The notes under the pieces: model-generated | The model's database searches: none | Told to the model about the DNA's origin: nothing | Seen by the model: the letters and a program-made list of their open reading frames with translations, nothing else | Shown here: positions 49,705 to 56,004 of the stretch, in pieces | Layout: each line of letters starts with the position of its first letter | How positions within the stretch are numbered: position 1 is the stretch's first letter | Sequence record: PX092659.1 | Direction: 5' to 3' (one strand) | Length of the DNA: 64,000 bases | From: a phage | Position numbers and translations under genes: made by a program

Positions 49705-49740
49705 TTGAGCACAGAGAAAACCGAGCCAAAATGACTCGGT
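49705..49740 (-). terminator. intrinsic terminator
   Basis: minus-strand ACCGAG-UCAUUUUGG-CUCGGU hairpin followed by UUUCUCUGUGCU; immediately precedes next promoter. Confidence 0.55.
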
Positions 49741-49748
49741 TATACGGA

Positions 49749-49943
49749 TTAATCATAAAAAAGACCACGAATAGTATTAGCAAATTTAAGTATAATAGCG
49801 CGGTTTGAGCTACTTAACTTTTTAATATCGAAAGTGGGATCAGTCAAATATCTCGCCATAAATTTTACTTGTTTAGCTGAAAGTTGACCCTTATTCCACT
49901 TTTTAATTTTACCATAACATACCCAATATTCTTTATTCATCAT
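49749..49943 (-). CDS. hypothetical small protein
   Basis: 64-aa basic ORF at end of early small-gene operon. Confidence 0.35.
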   Translation of the reverse strand: MMNKEYWVCYGKIKKWNKGQLSAKQVKFMARYLTDPTFDIKKLSSSNRAIILKFANTIRGLFYD

Positions 49944-50325
49944 TTAGTCCCGGAACATAGATCCCAACACGATTTAATTGTTCTTTAGCTTCTTTGAGAA
50001 TATCTGGAGTGTACTCCCAAATATCATCTTCCACCTGTAAAAGATGTGGCGAACAACCGTCATCAGGCACACGACATATGGCCAAACCACGTGGATGGAA
50101 CAAAGAGAAATTTAGGGCAACAATCAAGCCCATAGCAGACAATTCATTCCAATCCAATTCCCATTCCCTGGCATATCCAGACAGGAAAATGCCAATGCAT
50201 GGATCATCTATTTGCTGCTCCGGAAAAGTGAAGGAGGCTTGTCTTACCCCCAACCAACGTTGTAGCAGCTTCTCCGCACGCTTCACCAAACTAGGATCAA
50301 TCTGACGCCAGTATACTTGTTCCAT
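49933..50325 (-). CDS. hypothetical protein, paralog of 50335..50763
   Basis: 130 aa; shares PCIG...W.ELD...MGL(I/V).ALN..LF.P...W.Y(S/T)P...G..(I/V)PGL pattern with upstream neighbour. Confidence 0.45.
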   Translation of the reverse strand: MEQVYWRQIDPSLVKRAEKLLQRWLGVRQASFTFPEQQIDDPCIGIFLSGYAREWELDWNELSAMGLIVALNFSLFHPRGLAICRVPDDGCSPHLLQVEDDIWEYTPDILKEAKEQLNRVGIYVPGLNDE

Positions 50326-50334
50326 TATGCCTCC

Positions 50335-50763
50335 TTAGGCAGTTAAACCCGGAATTTGATAACCAAAACGGCGAAGTTTTTGGATACCATCATTTACTTC
50401 TTCCGGTGAGTAAGACCAACCATAACGTTCATTAACCTGAAAACCAGGAGATTCACTAGTTTTATAGTTAACAACGAGGCGATGCTTAGCAGGCATAAAC
50501 AGCTTATAGTTTAACGCAAAAACTAAGCCCATTTCATCTAACTCTTTCCAGCCGACAATTTCTTCAAGACCATCCTCTACCTGCACAATTAAACCAATAC
50601 AGGGAGCCTCATCAATATCATCTTTAAAAGCAAAGGAGATTTCGTTATTCTCACACCATATTTTCAAAGAGTTAATAGCCTCATTATACAGGCTAGCTGG
50701 GAGAGTACGCCAAAAGTTAACCAAAATTGGGTTAGCTTCTTTAGAGAGTACATTATTGAACAT
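50335..50763 (-). CDS. hypothetical protein, paralog of 49933..50325
   Basis: 142 aa; same conserved motif series as downstream neighbour. Confidence 0.45.
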   Translation of the reverse strand: MFNNVLSKEANPILVNFWRTLPASLYNEAINSLKIWCENNEISFAFKDDIDEAPCIGLIVQVEDGLEEIVGWKELDEMGLVFALNYKLFMPAKHRLVVNYKTSESPGFQVNERYGWSYSPEEVNDGIQKLRRFGYQIPGLTA

Positions 50764-50765
50764 AT

Positions 50766-51272
50766 TTACACCTTAAATTGTTGTAAGGATTTACACATTT
50801 CAAGATCTGGGCTAAATTCTAGCATATAGCTAACAGCTTTTAAATCTTGAAGATTTATCCCAGTCCTACCGTTGACTATAACTGTTGGATACTGATACAT
50901 CATAGCACCCGCATCATCAAGTACACACCAATGTTTGAGCTTATACTTTTCAACGAAACGAAGAACAGAATTACCCCTAGATAATCCACCTCCAGTAAAA
51001 TCCGTTGTACCAAGAAAACGATCGATAAGACCTAATCTGGTCATAATCTGAACGTTCTCCATCTCATTTCTAACAGAGAACCAAGATGATACTCCAACAA
51101 TCATTATCGGAGAAGGACGAATAAAGTCCTGAAAAGCCTTGAGAAGCGGTTTGAAAACCCAGTCACTTCCAAAGAAAATCTTTTCATCATCAGGTGCATG
51201 ATGGTGGGAGATGCTCGAATTGAGCACCCCATCAATGTCTAGAAAAATAATCGGAGTATTACTTATTTCCAC
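50766..51272 (-). CDS. HAD-superfamily phosphatase-like protein (possible nucleotidase)
   Basis: 168 aa; N-terminal motif I FLDIDGVL (DxDG), downstream VLDDAG-like motif. Confidence 0.5.
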   Translation of the reverse strand: MEISNTPIIFLDIDGVLNSSISHHHAPDDEKIFFGSDWVFKPLLKAFQDFIRPSPIMIVGVSSWFSVRNEMENVQIMTRLGLIDRFLGTTDFTGGGLSRGNSVLRFVEKYKLKHWCVLDDAGAMMYQYPTVIVNGRTGINLQDLKAVSYMLEFSPDLEMCKSLQQFKV

Positions 51273-51441
51273 TTTTGTCCCTTTCTAAGAACGTATCATA
51301 CTCAACCGTATCAACATATATGACACCATAGTCATCGGATTTATAGTCCATTTCCCACAGCTCACAGCGATAGCACCAACTACCGTCCGCCCATACAAAT
51401 ATATCATCAGGGTGTGCATACACAGATTTAATTATGGACAT
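51259..51441 (-). CDS. hypothetical small protein
   Basis: 60-aa ORF overlapping both neighbours by 14 nt; ATG start. Confidence 0.3.
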   Translation of the reverse strand: MSIIKSVYAHPDDIFVWADGSWCYRCELWEMDYKSDDYGVIYVDTVEYDTFLERDKSGNK

Positions 51442-52255
51442 ATTTGTTCCCCGGCATATAAGGCCTACCCTCTAGATGAGCTTCTACACGAGCAATAAAA
51501 TCAGGGTCACTGAAGGCATCTACAGCCCCTTTACCCCAGTAAGGGATACCGCGTTCTTCCAACTGGTACATCTCACTACGAGTCATGCCTTGATAGCCAG
51601 GTTCCGCTGCTAGGGCATTATCATAGTAGTTAACAACCATTAGCTTGGCAGCAGTAAGGTTAAGAATAGGAAATAATTCCCAGTAGAAGTTAATTACTTG
51701 GTTAGAGCAACCAACCACAATGATCATATCTTGACTGGTAATACCATCAAAAACATTGTACATTTCTGTATATGCTGGAGCATGCTCACCAAAGAAGATG
51801 ACATTAGGTTTAACCCATTTATAGTCATCTGGGTCAATAGAGTTATACCCAACATCAATAATTCGTTTATTACTACTATTGTAGCTATCAGCTACAACAA
51901 CCTCCTTTAAGTATCCATGAATGTGGAGAATATCATTATGGGGAACACCAGCACGCTCAATAAGGTCATCAACGTTAGTAGTCAAATTTACTACTTGACC
52001 TGGGTATTGTTTATACCACTCACCAATACGAAGATGCGCAAGGTTAGGTTCAACAGTTTTTAGCTCTTCACGACGCTTGTTGTAAAACATATGGGTTTTA
52101 TGATAAAAATTACCACGAAAGGCATGAATATTACATACTTCTTCTAGATCATAATCATCCCACAATGCTTTACCACTAGCAGTATCAGTACGAAAGGCTC
52201 GTACACCACTTTCAACGCTCAAACCCGCACCGCTAATAATAATTAATCTACGCAT
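51428..52255 (-). CDS. Sir2-family (sirtuin-like) NAD-binding protein lacking zinc ribbon
   Basis: 275 aa; sirtuin motifs ISGAGLSVESGVRAFR (GAGxS...G(I/V)xxFR), TTNVDDL (TQNxDxL), catalytic His in LHIHGYL, VIFFGE, IIVVGCS; no CxxC zinc-binding pairs. Confidence 0.65.
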   Translation of the reverse strand: MRRLIIISGAGLSVESGVRAFRTDTASGKALWDDYDLEEVCNIHAFRGNFYHKTHMFYNKRREELKTVEPNLAHLRIGEWYKQYPGQVVNLTTNVDDLIERAGVPHNDILHIHGYLKEVVVADSYNSSNKRIIDVGYNSIDPDDYKWVKPNVIFFGEHAPAYTEMYNVFDGITSQDMIIVVGCSNQVINFYWELFPILNLTAAKLMVVNYYDNALAAEPGYQGMTRSEMYQLEERGIPYWGKGAVDAFSDPDFIARVEAHLEGRPYMPGNKYVHN

Positions 52256-52469
52256 TTTTCACCTGTTCTCTGAAGTTTTGCCCAATACTGTCTAATAGCT
52301 CAGCTAATTCTTTATTGCCTTTCTCCATTAAGGTATTAGCAATAACTTCTAGCATAGTAGCGCAGGATTCAACACCATCCTTATAGCCAGTTTCCCAGTG
52401 CTGCATTAATGCGTTTTCCAAAGCGGCGTTTAAACCCTTATCTGGTAGTATCGGCTTCAAGAATGCCAT
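52248..52469 (-). CDS. hypothetical small protein
   Basis: 73 aa; ATG 52469 with strong SD GAGGAG; overlaps upstream ORF by 32 nt. Confidence 0.4.
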   Translation of the reverse strand: MAFLKPILPDKGLNAALENALMQHWETGYKDGVESCATMLEVIANTLMEKGNKELAELLDSIGQNFREQVKNA

Positions 52470-52641
52470 AAAGTTTCTCCTCTAATTCCATAACACGATT
52501 TTCATAAGAGGCACGCAACTTTTCAATTGCCAGTGCACGCACCGTAACCTCATTAGAATTAATAGCTAATTGGGCCAGATCTTCTGTTTCCATACGTCCG
52601 TTGTAAATTAAGCGATATTTAAGATGTTTTACGTTTTTCAT
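52438..52641 (-). CDS. hypothetical small protein
   Basis: 67-aa ORF with predicted helical C-terminus. Confidence 0.35.
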   Translation of the reverse strand: MKNVKHLKYRLIYNGRMETEDLAQLAINSNEVTVRALAIEKLRASYENRVMELEEKLYGILEADTTR

Positions 52642-52650
52642 TCTTGTTCC

Positions 52651-52932
52651 TTAGTTCTGTACTGTAAATTCATTCTTATCACAGTGAGCATAATAATACC
52701 CATACATACGATAAATCTTCACAGCCTTAGTAGACCCCTTCGATTCTTCGTAATCAATCCAGAGCCACTTGTCTTTACCTACATAATGTACCCGAAACTT
52801 CTTAACTTTCTTATCATTCCATGTTGCAACAACACGACGATAATCAAATCCGCCCAACCAATCCAGAGCTTTACGTTCTTCACTAGGCTCTCCAAGATGG
52901 GAGACATCTACTTTAGGAAGCAACTCGCTCAT
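52651..52932 (-). CDS. hypothetical protein
   Basis: 93 aa; first gene after promoter, SD GAGAGGAG. Confidence 0.45.
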   Translation of the reverse strand: MSELLPKVDVSHLGEPSEERKALDWLGGFDYRRVVATWNDKKVKKFRVHYVGKDKWLWIDYEESKGSTKAVKIYRMYGYYYAHCDKNEFTVQN

Positions 52933-52960
52933 AACTTTCTCCTCTCAAATTTATAAATCT

Positions 52961-52989
52961 ATTATATATAAATTTTTGGCTGAAAGCAA
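52961..52989 (-). promoter_or_regulatory. T5-type early promoter
   Basis: minus strand TTGCTT(52989-52984)-17 bp-TATAAT(52966-52961) followed by ATAGATTTATAAATTTGAGAGGAG. Confidence 0.7.
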
Positions 52990-53024
52990 ATAAAATAAAA
53001 GCCAGGTCGACTAGCAACCCGGCT
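52988..53024 (-). terminator. intrinsic terminator after nrdD
   Basis: minus-strand AGCCGGG...CCUGGCU hairpin (one G-U pair) followed by UUUAUUUUAUUU. Confidence 0.6.
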
Positions 53025-53031
53025 GATTAGC

Positions 53032-54858
53032 TTACTTAAGATTTAAGTGTTTTACTCTACCAAGAACTTCTTTTTGTTTCCCAGAATTGAAAGGCCTACT
53101 GCCAGGAGATCCCAGGTACCCGCAAACCCTACGTGTAACCTCTATTTCTTCAGACCCACAACTCGGACATACAAACCCACGTTCAGAGGCAACAGATTCA
53201 CCCATATACCCACAGTTGAAGCACTCATCAATTGGTATATTAACACCAATATAATGGCTACATTCTAGCCCCTTATCCACCACATACTCAAGAGCTTTGT
53301 GGAACTTTTTCATTTGAGGTAGTTCCACAAATGATATATTACCACCATTAGCTATTTTGGTAAAATGAGCCTCGTACTCAAATTTAGTATCTGGAGCTAC
53401 CTTCTCTCTTACGTCCAAATGGTGACTATTAGTAAGATAGCCTTTGTCTGTTAACCAAGAATACTCTGGGAATCTACGTTCTAGTAATTTATTAAAACGA
53501 TTACATAGAGACTCACTAGGAGTAGCATACAAGCTAAACCCAAGATTAGTCTCATTAGCTTTAACTTCGCAACGATTTTTTAGGTGAGTGAGAACTTCCT
53601 CTGTAAATTCAATACAGTCCCTATGGGTCTGTGGTAAACTAAACATTATTTGGCACATCTCATAGACCCCAATATACCCAAGAGATACAGAGGATCTACC
53701 CTCAAAAATAGGCCATACATATTCTTCCCCTTCTAAACGTGCACCAAACCCACCGTGCATATAAAGAATAGGGGCTTGTTTAGCCTTAACTTTCTTCAGT
53801 CTGTTTAAGAAGAAGTCATGCGCTTCAAAAGCCTCATCCACATATTTGTCTAGAATACCCCAGAAATCTTCAAAAACTCCATCTGCCTCAGCAGCAACCA
53901 TAGGTAGATTGATAGACACAACACCTAAATTATTACGTCCTGCAATTTCTCCAGAGGGGATAGCAGATAAAAAACTACGACAACCCATAGGGGCTTTAAA
54001 ATCACCAGTAACAGCTACAACTCTCTCGTAACTTAAATAGTCTGGATACATACGAGTAGCAGAACACTCAAGTGCTAGCTGTTTTATATCATAGTTAGGA
54101 TCACCTGGGTTTTTATTTAACCCTTCTTTAACTGAGAATACTAGTTTAGGGAAGATAGGGGTTGACTCAGCAGCACCTAAACCTTTAATGCGATTTTGGA
54201 GGATGGCTTTCTGAATCATCCTTTCCTCCCACTCCTGCCCTAATCCAAAGCCAAGCGTAACAAAAGGGGTCTGCCCATTAGAGTTAAATAATGAATTAGT
54301 TTCATACTCTAGAGCTTGGAATGCATCATAACACTCTTTTTCAGTAAGCTCAGTAGCATACACAGCAGCTTTTCTTTCATCCTTGAGCCAACGTAGCCCA
54401 CGACCCAGATGTTTATTGTAAGACTTTCTGACATACGGGGCTAGAACCTCGTCGATACGATCAATAGAGGTGCCACCATACTGAGCACCAGATACTTGGG
54501 CAATAATCTGAGCAGTGATTGCACATGCAGTAGTTATGGATTTAGGAGTTTCAATATTTGCATTACCAATTTTAGTACCATTCTTCAGCATGCCACCAAG
54601 GTCTACTAAGCAACAGTTAGTGTACCCCTGCGCCCTGTAATCCATATCATGAATGTGTATCTTACCTAGATTATGTGCGTCTAATAGATGTTTGGGTAAT
54701 TCCTGCGATACTAAATACTTGTTGATTTCTCCGGCTAATAAGTCTCTTTGAGTATGGAACATCTCACTAGGCTTATTAGCATTATTATGTTGTAAGTCCT
54801 TGTCAGCAGTTAGAGTGAGCAGGCCTTTGCAATTCTCAATTAATTCATTCTCTGTCAT
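53032..54858 (-). CDS. nrdD: anaerobic ribonucleoside-triphosphate reductase
   Basis: 608 aa; C-terminal glycyl-radical motif RVCGYLGSP and zinc site CFNCGY...CPSCGS; catalytic Cys region. Confidence 0.9.
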   Translation of the reverse strand: MTENELIENCKGLLTLTADKDLQHNNANKPSEMFHTQRDLLAGEINKYLVSQELPKHLLDAHNLGKIHIHDMDYRAQGYTNCCLVDLGGMLKNGTKIGNANIETPKSITTACAITAQIIAQVSGAQYGGTSIDRIDEVLAPYVRKSYNKHLGRGLRWLKDERKAAVYATELTEKECYDAFQALEYETNSLFNSNGQTPFVTLGFGLGQEWEERMIQKAILQNRIKGLGAAESTPIFPKLVFSVKEGLNKNPGDPNYDIKQLALECSATRMYPDYLSYERVVAVTGDFKAPMGCRSFLSAIPSGEIAGRNNLGVVSINLPMVAAEADGVFEDFWGILDKYVDEAFEAHDFFLNRLKKVKAKQAPILYMHGGFGARLEGEEYVWPIFEGRSSVSLGYIGVYEMCQIMFSLPQTHRDCIEFTEEVLTHLKNRCEVKANETNLGFSLYATPSESLCNRFNKLLERRFPEYSWLTDKGYLTNSHHLDVREKVAPDTKFEYEAHFTKIANGGNISFVELPQMKKFHKALEYVVDKGLECSHYIGVNIPIDECFNCGYMGESVASERGFVCPSCGSEEIEVTRRVCGYLGSPGSRPFNSGKQKEVLGRVKHLNLK

Positions 54859-55708
54859 TGATTATTTCCTCGATAAACTTTATAGCTACTTTTGGTTCAA
54901 TATTGAAGAATTCCGTAGCGCCATCAAAATCTTTGTAATGGCAATTCTGTTCTTTAAAGTAGTTATGAGCTAATTTTTCGATTCGAACTGCACTACTATA
55001 TTCGCCAATTTCAAATACTTTAAGTATTTCCAAATCAATAAGGTGGCCACTAGATTTAATATGTAGAAGCCTACGCTCTGGATTGTTAGACCTACCTATT
55101 TTAACTCCATGTGTGGGGCTATGCATAACATATATCTTAGTACTTTCTAAATCTCTATAGCTACAGTAAGGACAACCGTTCCCTCTTAATACAGATCCTG
55201 GAGTAGCTCCCCACCTATGCCCTGCGCCACAGAGAAAGGTAGTCTTAGTATTCGCATTAACATATTCACCTACTATTCTGATATTTCTGGCAGTAAGACG
55301 ATCATTTATAACACTAATACTAAGTTTCTGCTTATTAATAGCACAAGACGGACAGCCACTCCCCCTATTAATTATGCTATTAAGCGTAGTAGTCCACTCA
55401 TGACCACAAATACACCTAAATTTAGTGTTTATATCAACACTATTTTTATATCCCCCCAACAATGTAATACCTCTGTCCTGTAATACAGAACTAATTTTAT
55501 CAATATCTAGTTTACGGCTATTAGTAGAGCAAGTAGGACAATTGGTCTTTCCATTCCTAATAGCGTCAAATTTAGCTGTCCATTGATGGCCATATTCACA
55601 CTGATACGTATGCCTATACCTAGAATTTTGATACGGCTTATCCACCATAGTAAAACCACGCTCGGCTAGGCATTTATCTACTTCTTCTTGGGTTAATTTT
55701 TTCGGCAT
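54845..55708 (-). CDS. zinc-ribbon plus T5orf172/GIY-YIG-like putative homing endonuclease
   Basis: approx 288 aa from ATG 55708 (track extends to TTG 55765); four repeats ending CPTC/CPSC/CPYC; C-terminal IYVMHSPTHGVKIGRSNNPERRL...GATEFF; consensus promoter upstream. Confidence 0.6.
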   Translation of the reverse strand: MPKKLTQEEVDKCLAERGFTMVDKPYQNSRYRHTYQCEYGHQWTAKFDAIRNGKTNCPTCSTNSRKLDIDKISSVLQDRGITLLGGYKNSVDINTKFRCICGHEWTTTLNSIINRGSGCPSCAINKQKLSISVINDRLTARNIRIVGEYVNANTKTTFLCGAGHRWGATPGSVLRGNGCPYCSYRDLESTKIYVMHSPTHGVKIGRSNNPERRLLHIKSSGHLIDLEILKVFEIGEYSSAVRIEKLAHNYFKEQNCHYKDFDGATEFFNIEPKVAIKFIEEIINDRE

Positions 55709-55736
55709 TACTCTTCTCCATAGAATTTTTACATTT

Positions 55737-55765
55737 ATTATACTAAACATTATCCACCATGTCAA
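55737..55765 (-). promoter_or_regulatory. consensus sigma70 promoter
   Basis: minus strand TTGACA(55765-55760)-17 bp-TATAAT(55742-55737), then SD GGAGAAGAG and ATG 55708. Confidence 0.7.
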
Positions 55766-55902
55766 TTAAAATTTTCTTTCGCCATCTAATACTGTAATAT
55801 TTCGCGTATAAATAGTTGAGTATCTAGTATCACACATCCCACGTTAAAAGCAAGCAAATTTTTTATTTAAATGCAATATCATAGGCTTATTTAAAATTGT
55901 AG

Positions 55903-55931
55903 TTGCTTTTTACTGTATATATTGGTATAAT
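55903..55931 (+). promoter_or_regulatory. T5-type promoter upstream of phoH (divergent from 55737..55765)
   Basis: TTGCTT(55903-55908)-17 bp-TATAAT(55926-55931) with TG at -15/-14 (extended -10). Confidence 0.65.
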
Positions 55932-56004
55932 ATATTTGTAAGTTGATAAACAAGATCTTTTTGTTGATCCTCTGTTAGCGAAGTACACTATAGGAGTGTT
56001 ATTT

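Follow-up and report, generated by a model that had tools for sequence, protein, structure and literature searches.

The open reading frame at 51428..52255 on the minus strand of the window (the 64,000-nucleotide stretch of phage DNA analysed here) is a real gene encoding a sirtuin of 275 amino acids. Its assignment draws on the ORF list, Pfam, PHROG, an AlphaFold2 (AF2) model and identity to phage T5, and its sequence marks it as the Tequintavirus ortholog of the T5 gene T5p100. The sequence and the model suggest that the product may well be a CobB-like protein deacylase, a reading that we prefer but hold tentatively; participation in RNA repair, which we consider rather unlikely, is its main rival.

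Identity, fold and spread of the phage sirtuin

The SIR2 profile (PF02146) matches the protein significantly (E = 7e-25, 88.4 bits against a cutoff of 24), as an earlier note on this DNA had anticipated. The match covers model positions 1–178 of 180, and the model ends at about residue 187 of the phage protein; PHROG 2162 matches the ORF over its full length (E = 4.5e-121). The closest PDB sequence is Escherichia coli CobB (E = 1.9e-17 with the single sequence and 1.5e-29 with a profile of the phage clade), followed by Sir2Af1/2 and SIRT5. The AF2 model (pLDDT 88, pTM 0.87) has a CobB-like fold in which, by the model and by Foldseek, both the Rossmann NAD-binding core and the small domain are present. 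The top Foldseek matches are CobB–peptide complexes (E = 3e-18, TM score 0.83–0.85 on the target, 265–273 aligned columns), and all 50 best neighbours are lysine deacylases: CobB, SIRT5, Sir2Af, Sir2Tm and SIRT2. The best NCBIfam models are also CobB-type deacylases, all far under cutoff (NF040867, NF001753 and related models; 99.7 bits against 243 and 90.1 against 320), and the phage protein is therefore not a CobB ortholog.

The protein is 92% identical to T5p100 (AY692264, AAU05239), which the T5 record labels ‘NAD-dependent protein deacetylases SIR2 family’ and which has orthologs in BF23, SPC35 and other phages. In T5, as in the window, the gene lies between nrdD and the D2 helicase gene and is followed by a small ORF, a HAD gene and two DUF7415 genes. 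There is no substantive difference between the two loci; the window joins a T5/NBSal003-type allele to an S124-type nrdD. Genes of this type have been annotated for twenty years, an identity missed by the earlier note, which had described a sirtuin-like NAD-binding enzyme; the protein is indeed a sirtuin, and its NAD site is intact.

Members of the family are found in 978 of 50,697 phage records (about 2%, by tblastn), almost always under a Sir2-like label, and the carriers include the model phages T5, BF23, rV5 and KVP40 as well as many candidates for therapy. Megablast counts (233 records for Sir2, 51 for nrdD and 410 for HAD) are not prevalence estimates because of allele mosaicism, and tblastn was used instead. 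Among 24 alleles the median pairwise dN/dS is 0.09, a sign of purifying selection. In phage DT57C, the sirtuin gene is reduced to a deletion remnant, part of a Sir2–HAD deletion chimera; since DT57C is viable with this remnant only, the gene is dispensable. It is an accessory gene, conserved and under purifying selection yet dispensable for plaque formation.

Active site and zinc-free small domain

All the sirtuin motifs that the earlier note had listed for this minus-strand ORF are present in the translation: GAGLS (residues 9–13; 52217..52231), the NAD pyrophosphate-binding loop; FR (21–22); TTNVD (92–96; 51968..51982), the catalytic Asn/Asp motif; LHIHG, with the catalytic His113 (51917..51919) in an HxHG motif aligned with that of CobB; FGE (155–157; 51785..51793), the substrate-tunnel loop; and VVGCS (180–184). 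By its residues (Asn, Asp, His and GAGxS all kept), the protein belongs to the sirtuin superfamily. It also has the Y-x-x-R motif of class III sirtuins, as Y58-N-K-R61 (52073..52084, minus strand), identified from the CobB alignment and clade conservation. Across 31 diverse clade members, G9, A10, G11, S13, F21, R22, Y58, R61, R62, N94, D96, H113, F155, E157 and V187 are unchanged in every one, G156 of FGE is variable, and some 60 columns do not vary even between lineages as little as about 55% identical. Column equivalences with CobB are anchored by named CobB mutants in the PDB alignments (Y92, I131 and V187). Y58 is aligned with CobB Y92, a position at which the PDB variant Y92A (6RXS) shows Ala; V95 aligns with CobB I131 and F155 with CobB F190.

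Two substitutions set the clade apart. The Gln of TQN(I/V)D, otherwise universally conserved, is Thr throughout the phage clade, and Asn replaces the Pro of V-Y-P in the substrate loop. We compared 146 more distant relatives, drawn from a representative protein library without source labels, of which 52 are zinc-free and 94, with at least three Cys in the zinc-module segment, are zinc-bearing. In this set the Gln-to-Thr change co-occurs with Cys loss, and Y-x-x-R persists in 40 of the 52 zinc-free and 63 of the 94 zinc-bearing proteins.

The phage sirtuin has only two Cys residues, C41 and C183, and therefore no Cys4 (CxxC...CxxC) zinc site of the kind found in the small domain of canonical deacylases; residues 114–149 are free of Cys in all 31 clade members. 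The earlier note had described a sirtuin without zinc ribbon, which is correct for the Cys4 site and not for the module as a whole. The segment H113–K149 is 37 residues long, versus 37–42 in Cys4-bearing relatives, and AF2 predicts three strands in it (114–122, 131–134 and 147–152; pLDDT ~89–96). By length and predicted fold, the small β module (residues 114–149; 51809..51916, minus strand) is retained at normal length and the metal ligands alone are lost. The 60-residue ORF downstream, which contains a CYRC motif, was considered as a source of a zinc site in trans and rejected, as its second Cys is not kept elsewhere (CYRS, CYGH).

Nor are the C-terminal 100 residues unrelated to sirtuins, as had been proposed. 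In the AF2 model, residues 176–261 form the final strands and helices of the Rossmann fold, the Foldseek alignments with CobB extend across this part, and the clade profile alignment with CobB runs through the VVN strand at about residue 209; the C-terminal part is thus modelled as completing the Rossmann fold. The parts without a CobB counterpart are a disordered tail (residues 270–275) and an insertion of about 26 residues (210–235; 51551..51628, minus strand). In the alignment of 31 clade members this insertion is found in T5-type alleles and a few others and is gapped in most of the rest, and it is predicted to form a loop and a helix (226–234).

These features point to a complete sirtuin of the CobB/SIRT5 (class III-like) lineage, predicted to be catalytically competent. 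NAD+ would be bound by the Rossmann domain and activated by N94, D96 and H113 for attack at ribose C1'', while the acyl-lysine side chain would enter a hydrophobic tunnel lined by F21, V95, F155 and V187. Y58 and R61 are placed where CobB and SIRT5 recognize negatively charged acyl groups. The tunnel residues and this pair make lysine deacylation the most likely reaction: acetyl, succinyl or similar groups would be taken off lysines of host or phage proteins in an NAD+-dependent manner, yielding nicotinamide and O-acyl-ADP-ribose. The small domain would keep its β-ribbon shape, held together without zinc. The substrate class would be acyl-lysine, and the uniformly acidic character of the phage clade (median pI 5.2, net charge −11) fits basic, lysine-rich protein clients better than RNA. 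Against the deacylase reading stand the Gln-to-Thr and Pro-to-Asn changes and, as described below, RNA-end-processing neighbours; no biochemical data on any member of the phage clade were found in the literature. Host CobB is reported to have restrained T4 and lambda in a study of sirtuins as viral restriction factors, and a phage-borne CobB-like enzyme is therefore less obviously useful. Sirtuins are described as conserved factors of this kind in PMC4271551.

Gene neighbourhood and competing reactions

The sirtuin gene is part of a unit of small genes on the minus strand, bounded by two terminator-like hairpins found by a consensus scan: one after NrdD at the upstream limit (53000..53024; 10-bp stem and T run) and one at the downstream limit (49719..49741; 10-bp stem). 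A Shine–Dalgarno-like AGGTGA (52259..52264, minus strand), noted by reading the sequence, lies 3 nt ahead of its ATG; the ORF overlaps the upstream ORF by 8 nt at its start and the downstream 60-residue ORF (51259..51441, minus strand; PHROG 5116, E = 1e-28) by 14 nt at its 3' end. This small ORF, directly 3' of the sirtuin in three sirtuin lineages, is all that separates the sirtuin gene from a gene for a HAD_SAK_2 phosphatase-like protein of 168 residues with a DxDGV motif (50766..51272, minus strand; PF18143, E = 3.9e-19, 69.8 bits, cutoff 27.5). A PDB sequence search with the HAD protein gave no match. Its ‘Sir2’ label in RefSeq and PHROG 18062, which would make it a second sirtuin, is a mislabel that arose because of the Sir2–HAD deletion chimera in DT57C. 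In T5 the corresponding region is one of early genes, and by analogy the sirtuin gene is probably expressed early. In some other phages, relatives of the sirtuin have NAPRTase, PRPP synthetase and NADAR genes within a few kb.

The pairing of a sirtuin with a HAD_SAK phosphatase was described in 2022, with a predicted role in RNA repair (Iyer, Burroughs, Anantharaman and Aravind; PMC9503650). The window has the gene arrangement of neighbourhood type 3 in that study, the prototype of which is Escherichia phage SP15, itself a Tequintavirus. On this reading, the sirtuin would work in the manner of KptA/Tpt1 and transfer ADP-ribose from NAD+ onto the 2'-phosphate of an RNA end that had been broken or joined again, the phosphate being released as ADP-ribose cyclic phosphate; the adjacent HAD_SAK_2 protein would either prepare the RNA end or clear the product, and the pair would restore tRNAs, of the phage or the host, that anticodon nucleases of the host had cleaved. 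The name of the HAD family (‘HAD domain in Swiss Army Knife RNA repair proteins’), the exact match to the published prototype and the ~18 tRNA genes of T5-type genomes (none was found in the 64-kb window) all speak for it. So do seven other lineages in which the sirtuin sits in a cluster reading Metallophos, T4-type RNA ligase 1 (Rnl1), cREC, AAA_33 kinase, SIR2, DNA ligase and MazG. At the residue level, the invariant Y58, R61 and R62 could bind phosphate instead of carboxylate, and the clade, with Thr invariably in place of Gln, has a divergent ribose pocket.

The wider distribution of neighbours is less favourable. Sirtuin and HAD_SAK_2 are both present in all 24 T5-type loci, and HAD_SAK_2 adjoins the sirtuin in three of five Demerecviridae-type lineages, but the remaining two Demerecviridae lineages, L055 and L056, hold the sirtuin without the HAD gene. 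RNA-end-processing neighbours (HAD_SAK_2 or the Metallophos–Rnl1–cREC–kinase cluster) occur in 10 of 24 sirtuin lineages, and the other 14 have no recognizable RNA-repair neighbour within 8 kb. In the closest T5-type reference genome, tblastn found no homologs of Rnl1, cREC or the AAA_33 kinase, and there is no annotated RNA ligase or polynucleotide kinase in that genome apart from ~6 kb left out; a distant Metallophos match (E = 2e-5) lies far from the sirtuin locus of the T5-type genome. The published prediction was made because of RNA-end-processing neighbour genes, that is, from gene context alone, and in the mosaic early regions of phages adjacency counts for less as evidence than it would in a bacterial operon. 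The clade has kept every acyl-lysine tunnel residue and is strongly acidic, and the fold matches peptide-bound CobB. A broader form of the proposal, in which the clade as a whole switched from proteins to nucleic acids and performs NAD+-using RNA-end healing with HAD_SAK_2 or with RNA ligase 1, kinase and phosphoesterase, seems to us unlikely. Two further elements belong to it and would hold only jointly with it, with an equally low probability: protection of the phage's own tRNAs against anticodon nucleases of the host, and zinc loss with the Gln-to-Thr change as the structural signature of the switch.

Sirtuin chemistry also permits ADP-ribosyl transfer to protein. The phage enzyme could then be a protein mono-ADP-ribosyltransferase, like SirTM or in part SIRT4 and SIRT6, that reprograms a host protein early. 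The lost zinc site and the Gln-to-Thr change are divergences from standard deacylases, and the surrounding unit consists of small genes that look host-directed. We nevertheless regard this as improbable: the clade retains both the catalytic His and a Y-x-x-R of the deacylase type, its closest structures are those of deacylases and not SirTM, and no Macro domain (the hallmark of SirTM) is encoded among the eight neighbouring ORFs.

The earlier note had favoured NAD-based host takeover or interference with NAD-consuming defences. An enzyme consuming NAD+ or destroying an NAD signal could act against Thoeris, DSR or SIR2–HerA, or deplete NAD+ in takeover. Conserved motifs indicate that NAD+ would be bound, TTN(V/Y)D may resemble the motif of defence-type SIR2_2 domains, and there are the NAPRTase, PRPP synthetase and NADAR genes near relatives in other phages. 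Membership of a defence system was, however, rejected on the searches: no PADLOC SIR2 model matches the sirtuin (the one PADLOC match is a spurious REase at E = 0.038), and Pfam reports PF02146 alone at E values up to 1, with no SIR2_2 match. No defence sirtuin is among the 50 best structural neighbours, all deacylases. The protein retains the FGE loop, substrate tunnel and Y-x-x-R residues that typify deacylases, no SLOG, HerA, TIR or pAgo gene was found among its neighbours, and its transcription unit in the window contains no NAD-salvage or ADP-ribose-processing partner. The T5 DNA ligase is NAD-dependent, and depletion of NAD+ would harm a phage with such a ligase; the laboratory phage DT57C, moreover, is viable without the gene. 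We therefore consider this reading very improbable. Finally, that the gene is what remains of a captured host cobB, decaying or no longer functional, as the lost zinc ligands and the deletion in DT57C might suggest, is contradicted by the low dN/dS, the ~60 invariant columns, the 978 records and the confidently predicted fold.

Relation to known sirtuins

The best match in sequence and fold is E. coli CobB (1S5P, 6RXJ–6RXS), a class III deacetylase/desuccinylase (full-length TM score ~0.85). The two proteins share aligned GAGxS, FR, Y-x-x-R, N-x-D, HxHG and FGE motifs at ~24% identity. The phage protein differs in its lack of zinc-binding Cys, in Thr for the Gln of TQNID and Asn for the Pro of V-Y-P, in the extra 26-residue insertion near the C terminus and in scoring below the NCBIfam CobB cutoffs. 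Human and zebrafish SIRT5 (desuccinylase/demalonylase/deglutarylase) have Y-x-x-R and a class III-type N-terminal half in common with it (profile E ~1e-19), whereas they have a Cys4 zinc site of their own and a larger helical module, and the sequence match is limited to residues 2–120. Defence SIR2 NADases (ThsA, DSR1/2, SIR2–HerA and SPARSA) share the Rossmann core with Asn and His and also have no zinc site; they show no detectable profile similarity to the phage protein and have sensor domains but not the FGE/tunnel architecture, in contrast to a stand-alone enzyme of 275 residues.

Both the zinc-free state and the gene pair are known. CobB-like sirtuins without zinc ligands were described in the Vibrio phages KVP40, phiSt2 and phiGrn1 and modelled on 1S5P with a conserved acetyl-lysine tunnel, and T5 was listed as a carrier (Skliros et al. 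2016, PMC5107563); these proteins are ~35% identical to that of the window and adjoin NAD-salvage genes, not HAD_SAK_2. The type 3 clade of 2022, with SP15, has the same gene pair as the window (PMC9503650). That study assigns a KptA-like role from context, whereas the residue and fold evidence presented here argues at least as strongly for ordinary deacylation. Our findings add nothing beyond the T5 annotation and these two papers.

The gene is widespread, in about 2% of phage genomes, and under strong purifying selection. If its product is a plain deacylase, phages would edit the acyl-lysine proteome of the host, or their own, in early infection. Should the product instead act on RNA ends, sirtuins would gain a chemistry beyond that known for them: it would be the first sirtuin shown to take part in RNA repair, with the function of Tpt1/KptA but an unrelated fold. 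Both outcomes are within experimental reach, given a small soluble protein and the natural deletion phage DT57C.

Fold and identity of the sirtuin

The minus-strand ORF at 51428–52255 (275 codons) encodes, without doubt, a sirtuin. Pfam SIR2 (PF02146) matches it over the whole model (E 7e-25; 88 bits against a gathering score of 24) and PHROG 2162 ('Sir2') over its full length (E 4.5e-121), in agreement with the earlier note, which had recognized a Sir2-like protein by its motifs. These motifs are present in the translation: GAGLS (residues 9–13), FR (21–22), TTNVD (92–96), HIHG with H113, FGE (155–157) and VVGCS (180–184). The nearest solved structures by sequence are Escherichia coli CobB (1S5P, E 1.9e-17), archaeal Sir2Af1/Af2 and SIRT5. 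With a profile of 31 members of the clade (the phage sirtuins around this protein), the CobB match strengthens to E 1.5e-29 and extends as far as the VVN strand (residue ~209).

An AlphaFold model generated from the 31-member clade alignment (mean pLDDT 88, pTM 0.87) is poorly defined only in the flexible cofactor loop (22–29) and the last six residues. The predicted fold is confidently CobB-like and has the expected Rossmann core: the best Foldseek matches in the PDB are CobB–peptide complexes (E 3e-18, 265–273 aligned columns; TM 0.83–0.85, normalised on CobB), and the top 50 are all lysine deacylases (CobB, SIRT5, Sir2Af, Sir2Tm and SIRT2). The Pfam model ends at about residue 187, and the C-terminal 100 residues had been taken to be unrelated to sirtuins. 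They are not: residues 176–261 form the last Rossmann strands and helices and superpose on CobB. The only parts without a counterpart are a disordered tail and a 26-residue insertion (210–235), the latter found in T5-type alleles and in a handful of other members of the clade.

As an object, the gene is already known. Its T5 orthologue, T5p100 (92% protein identity), is labelled 'NAD-dependent protein deacetylases SIR2 family; similar to Bacteriophage KVP40 Sir2/CobB protein' in AY692264, an annotation that is textbook-level. Skliros et al. 2016 (PMC5107563) reported the zinc-free state for the CobB-like sirtuins of KVP40 and phiSt2 and listed T5 among the carriers. Iyer, Burroughs, Anantharaman and Aravind 2022 (PMC9503650) set apart a 'distinct clade' among viral sirtuins and named SP15, a Tequintavirus, for the pairing with a HAD_SAK phosphatase; the missing zinc and the HAD partner are thus both published. 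By tblastn, the family occurs in 978 of 50,697 phage records, nearly all labelled Sir2/deacetylase, with carriers among T5-like, rV5-like Vequintavirus, Mydovirus-type Klebsiella, KVP40-like Vibrio and several jumbo phages. Literature searches turned up no experiments on any member of the clade.

Active site and small module

The clade alignment is invariant at the NAD loop (G9, A10, G11 and S13), F21 and R22, the catalytic N94, D96 and H113, the tunnel residues V95, F155 and V187, and Y58, R61 and R62. Equivalences to CobB were fixed through PDB entries of engineered variants: the substituted residues of CobB Y92A (6RXS), I131C (6RXM) and V187Y (6RXS) fall in the columns of Y58, V95 and V152, respectively. 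In CobB and SIRT5, Y-x-x-R is the motif that binds succinyl or malonyl groups through their carboxylate. Because Y58 aligns with CobB Y92 through the variant and Y58 and R61 are invariant, this class III motif is, as judged from the alignment, intact. Throughout the clade, two positions deviate: Thr takes the place of the Gln in TQN(I/V)D, and Asn or Asp that of the Pro in the V-Y-P loop. The clade is also uniformly acidic (median pI 5.2, net charge −11).

C41 and C183 are the protein's only cysteines. A zinc ribbon had been described as absent, which is correct for the metal ligands, as the small-module segment has no Cys in any of the 31 aligned members, but not for the module itself, which is retained. 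The segment from the catalytic His to the KPNV strand measures 37 residues, against 37–42 in four-cysteine relatives, and its three strands (114–122, 131–134 and 147–152) are predicted at pLDDT ~89–96. An exhaustive profile search (7,117 matches at E up to 1e-3) provided 146 usable representatives, among which replacement of the Gln, mostly by Thr, coincides with loss of the zinc cysteines: 79 have Gln with at least three Cys, 43 have another residue with two Cys or fewer, and 24 are mixed (Fisher p 2e-15, without phylogenetic correction), a hint that the replacement at residue 93 (51977–51979) and the cysteine loss (114–149) are a coupled change of ribose pocket and small domain. Y-x-x-R is retained in Cys-bearing and Cys-poor groups alike.

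Operon, selection and dispensability

The window phage is a T5-like, Tequintavirus-type member of the Demerecviridae, and its sirtuin gene shares 95.7% nucleotide identity with that of Phage NBSal003. The gene overlaps the stop of an upstream 73-aa ORF by 8 nt and the next ORF by 14 nt, and a Shine–Dalgarno-like AGGTGA (52259–52264, minus) lies three bases ahead of its ATG; it is thus one of nine consecutive minus-strand ORFs that are closely packed and probably coupled in translation. These nine are bracketed by terminator-like minus-strand hairpins at 53024–53000, directly after nrdD, and at 49741–49719. Past nrdD come three small ORFs (PHROGs 7953, 5236 and 5827), the sirtuin, a 60-aa ORF (PHROG 5116; 51259–51441, minus), a 168-aa HAD_SAK_2 protein with a DxDGV motif (50766–51272, minus; PF18143, E 3.9e-19), two tandem DUF7415 paralogues of two repeats each (50335–50763 and 49933–50325, minus; E 2.6e-35 and 3.5e-31 for the pair) and a 64-aa ORF. 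The 60-aa ORF has a conserved DD..VW.DG.WCY core and a non-conserved CxxC; in three distinct sirtuin lineages, among them those of non-T5 phages of ~90 kb (L036 and L038), it lies immediately 3′ of the sirtuin gene. The DUF7415 pair is kept downstream in all Demerecviridae-type loci.

T5-like phages circulate two sirtuin alleles of ~52% protein identity. A mosaic joint lies at ~52840–53400: the nrdD side (52837–56000) is 96% identical to an S124-type locus (L047), and the sirtuin operon (49940–53403) is 92% identical to an NBSal003-type locus (L017) and only 67–71% to L047. Just upstream of nrdD, a 306-aa ORF (54845–55765, minus) combines repeated zinc-finger-like CxxC units with a C-terminal part resembling GIY-YIG/T5orf172-type homing endonucleases; S124 is annotated 'endonuclease' at this position. 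The start of this ORF contains a perfect sigma-70 consensus (TTGACA, 17 nt, TATAAT, 12/12; 55737–55765, minus), by its sequence likely a strong early promoter.

Across 24 distinct T5-type alleles (pairwise Nei–Gojobori), mean dS is 0.32, mean dN 0.029 and median dN/dS 0.09. These values clearly show selection to keep the protein and exclude a decaying relic of a captured gene. It is nevertheless not essential, since the viable Tequintavirus DT57C carries in its place (NC_027356, 46493–46765) a 90-codon deletion chimera joining sirtuin residues ~171–212 to HAD residues ~128–168; most of the HAD gene is gone, as are the intervening 60-aa ORF and the portions of the sirtuin and HAD genes needed for catalysis. 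DT57C is thereby a natural, ready-made knockout for phenotype tests. Its record labels the chimera 'Sir2-like protein (defective)', the source of a propagating annotation error: RefSeq-style annotations and PHROG 18062 call HAD_SAK_2 (50766–51272; NC_048856 gp070; 2480–2752 of the DT57C locus, L066) 'Sir2 (NAD-dependent deacetylase)', an identity that we reject.

Proposed function and alternatives

We tentatively read the protein as an ordinary, CobB-like sirtuin deacylase, a reading towards which all of its intrinsic features point: its nearest relatives, a fold that matches peptide-bound CobB along its full length, the retained acyl-lysine tunnel, Y-x-x-R and the acidic surface charge. NAD+ would occupy the Rossmann cleft and the tunnel between the two domains would take in an acyl-lysine, whose acyl oxygen would attack C1'' with loss of nicotinamide; H113 would then activate a ribose hydroxyl, and free lysine and O-acyl-ADP-ribose would be released. 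Its substrates may be phage proteins, or host proteins of metabolism or transcription.

Less likely is the published proposal of a KptA/Tpt1-like activity of the clade on RNA ends, but its neighbourhood evidence is real, if partial (10 of 24 lineages). We clustered ORFs from 59 related viral loci and three others, defining sirtuin lineages at <80% identity. Six lineages (Mydovirus-type and relatives) have the cassette Metallophos–T4-type RNA ligase 1–AAA_33 kinase–SIR2–DNA ligase–MazG-like, four of these six with an additional cREC, and only Metallophos, DNA ligase and MazG are present in a seventh (L052). Mydovirus-type phages also have NAPRTase-family, PRPP synthetase and NADAR genes within a few kb of the cassette (Klebsiella phage loci L002/L003, 1–1133 and 12000–12720), thus placing an NAD-salvage and ADPr-processing set close to the sirtuin. 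HAD_SAK_2 occurs together with the sirtuin in three Demerecviridae lineages. Six rV5-like lineages have DUF7277/DUF7275, unknown proteins and a protein without a Pfam match whose FxGxG and PC motifs give it, by eye, a likeness to C5 DNA methyltransferases; nothing was recognisable among the neighbours in the other lineages.

The T5 group gives the least support for action on RNA ends: it lacks a ligase and does not always carry the HAD gene, two Demerecviridae lineages (L055 and L056) being without it in otherwise identical synteny. The closest T5-type reference genome has ~18 tRNA genes and, over all but ~6 kb of its length, no homologue of RNA ligase 1 or of the Mydovirus-type cREC or AAA_33 kinase; the only phosphoesterase match is a distant one, away from the sirtuin locus. 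Protein ADP-ribosylation is improbable, the sirtuin having no macrodomain partner among its neighbours. The NAD-dependent takeover or anti-defence role proposed in the earlier note is more doubtful still and finds no support, with no PADLOC or SIR2_2 similarity and none of the top 50 structural matches being a defence sirtuin.

A role in RNA repair would, if true, be of high interest.
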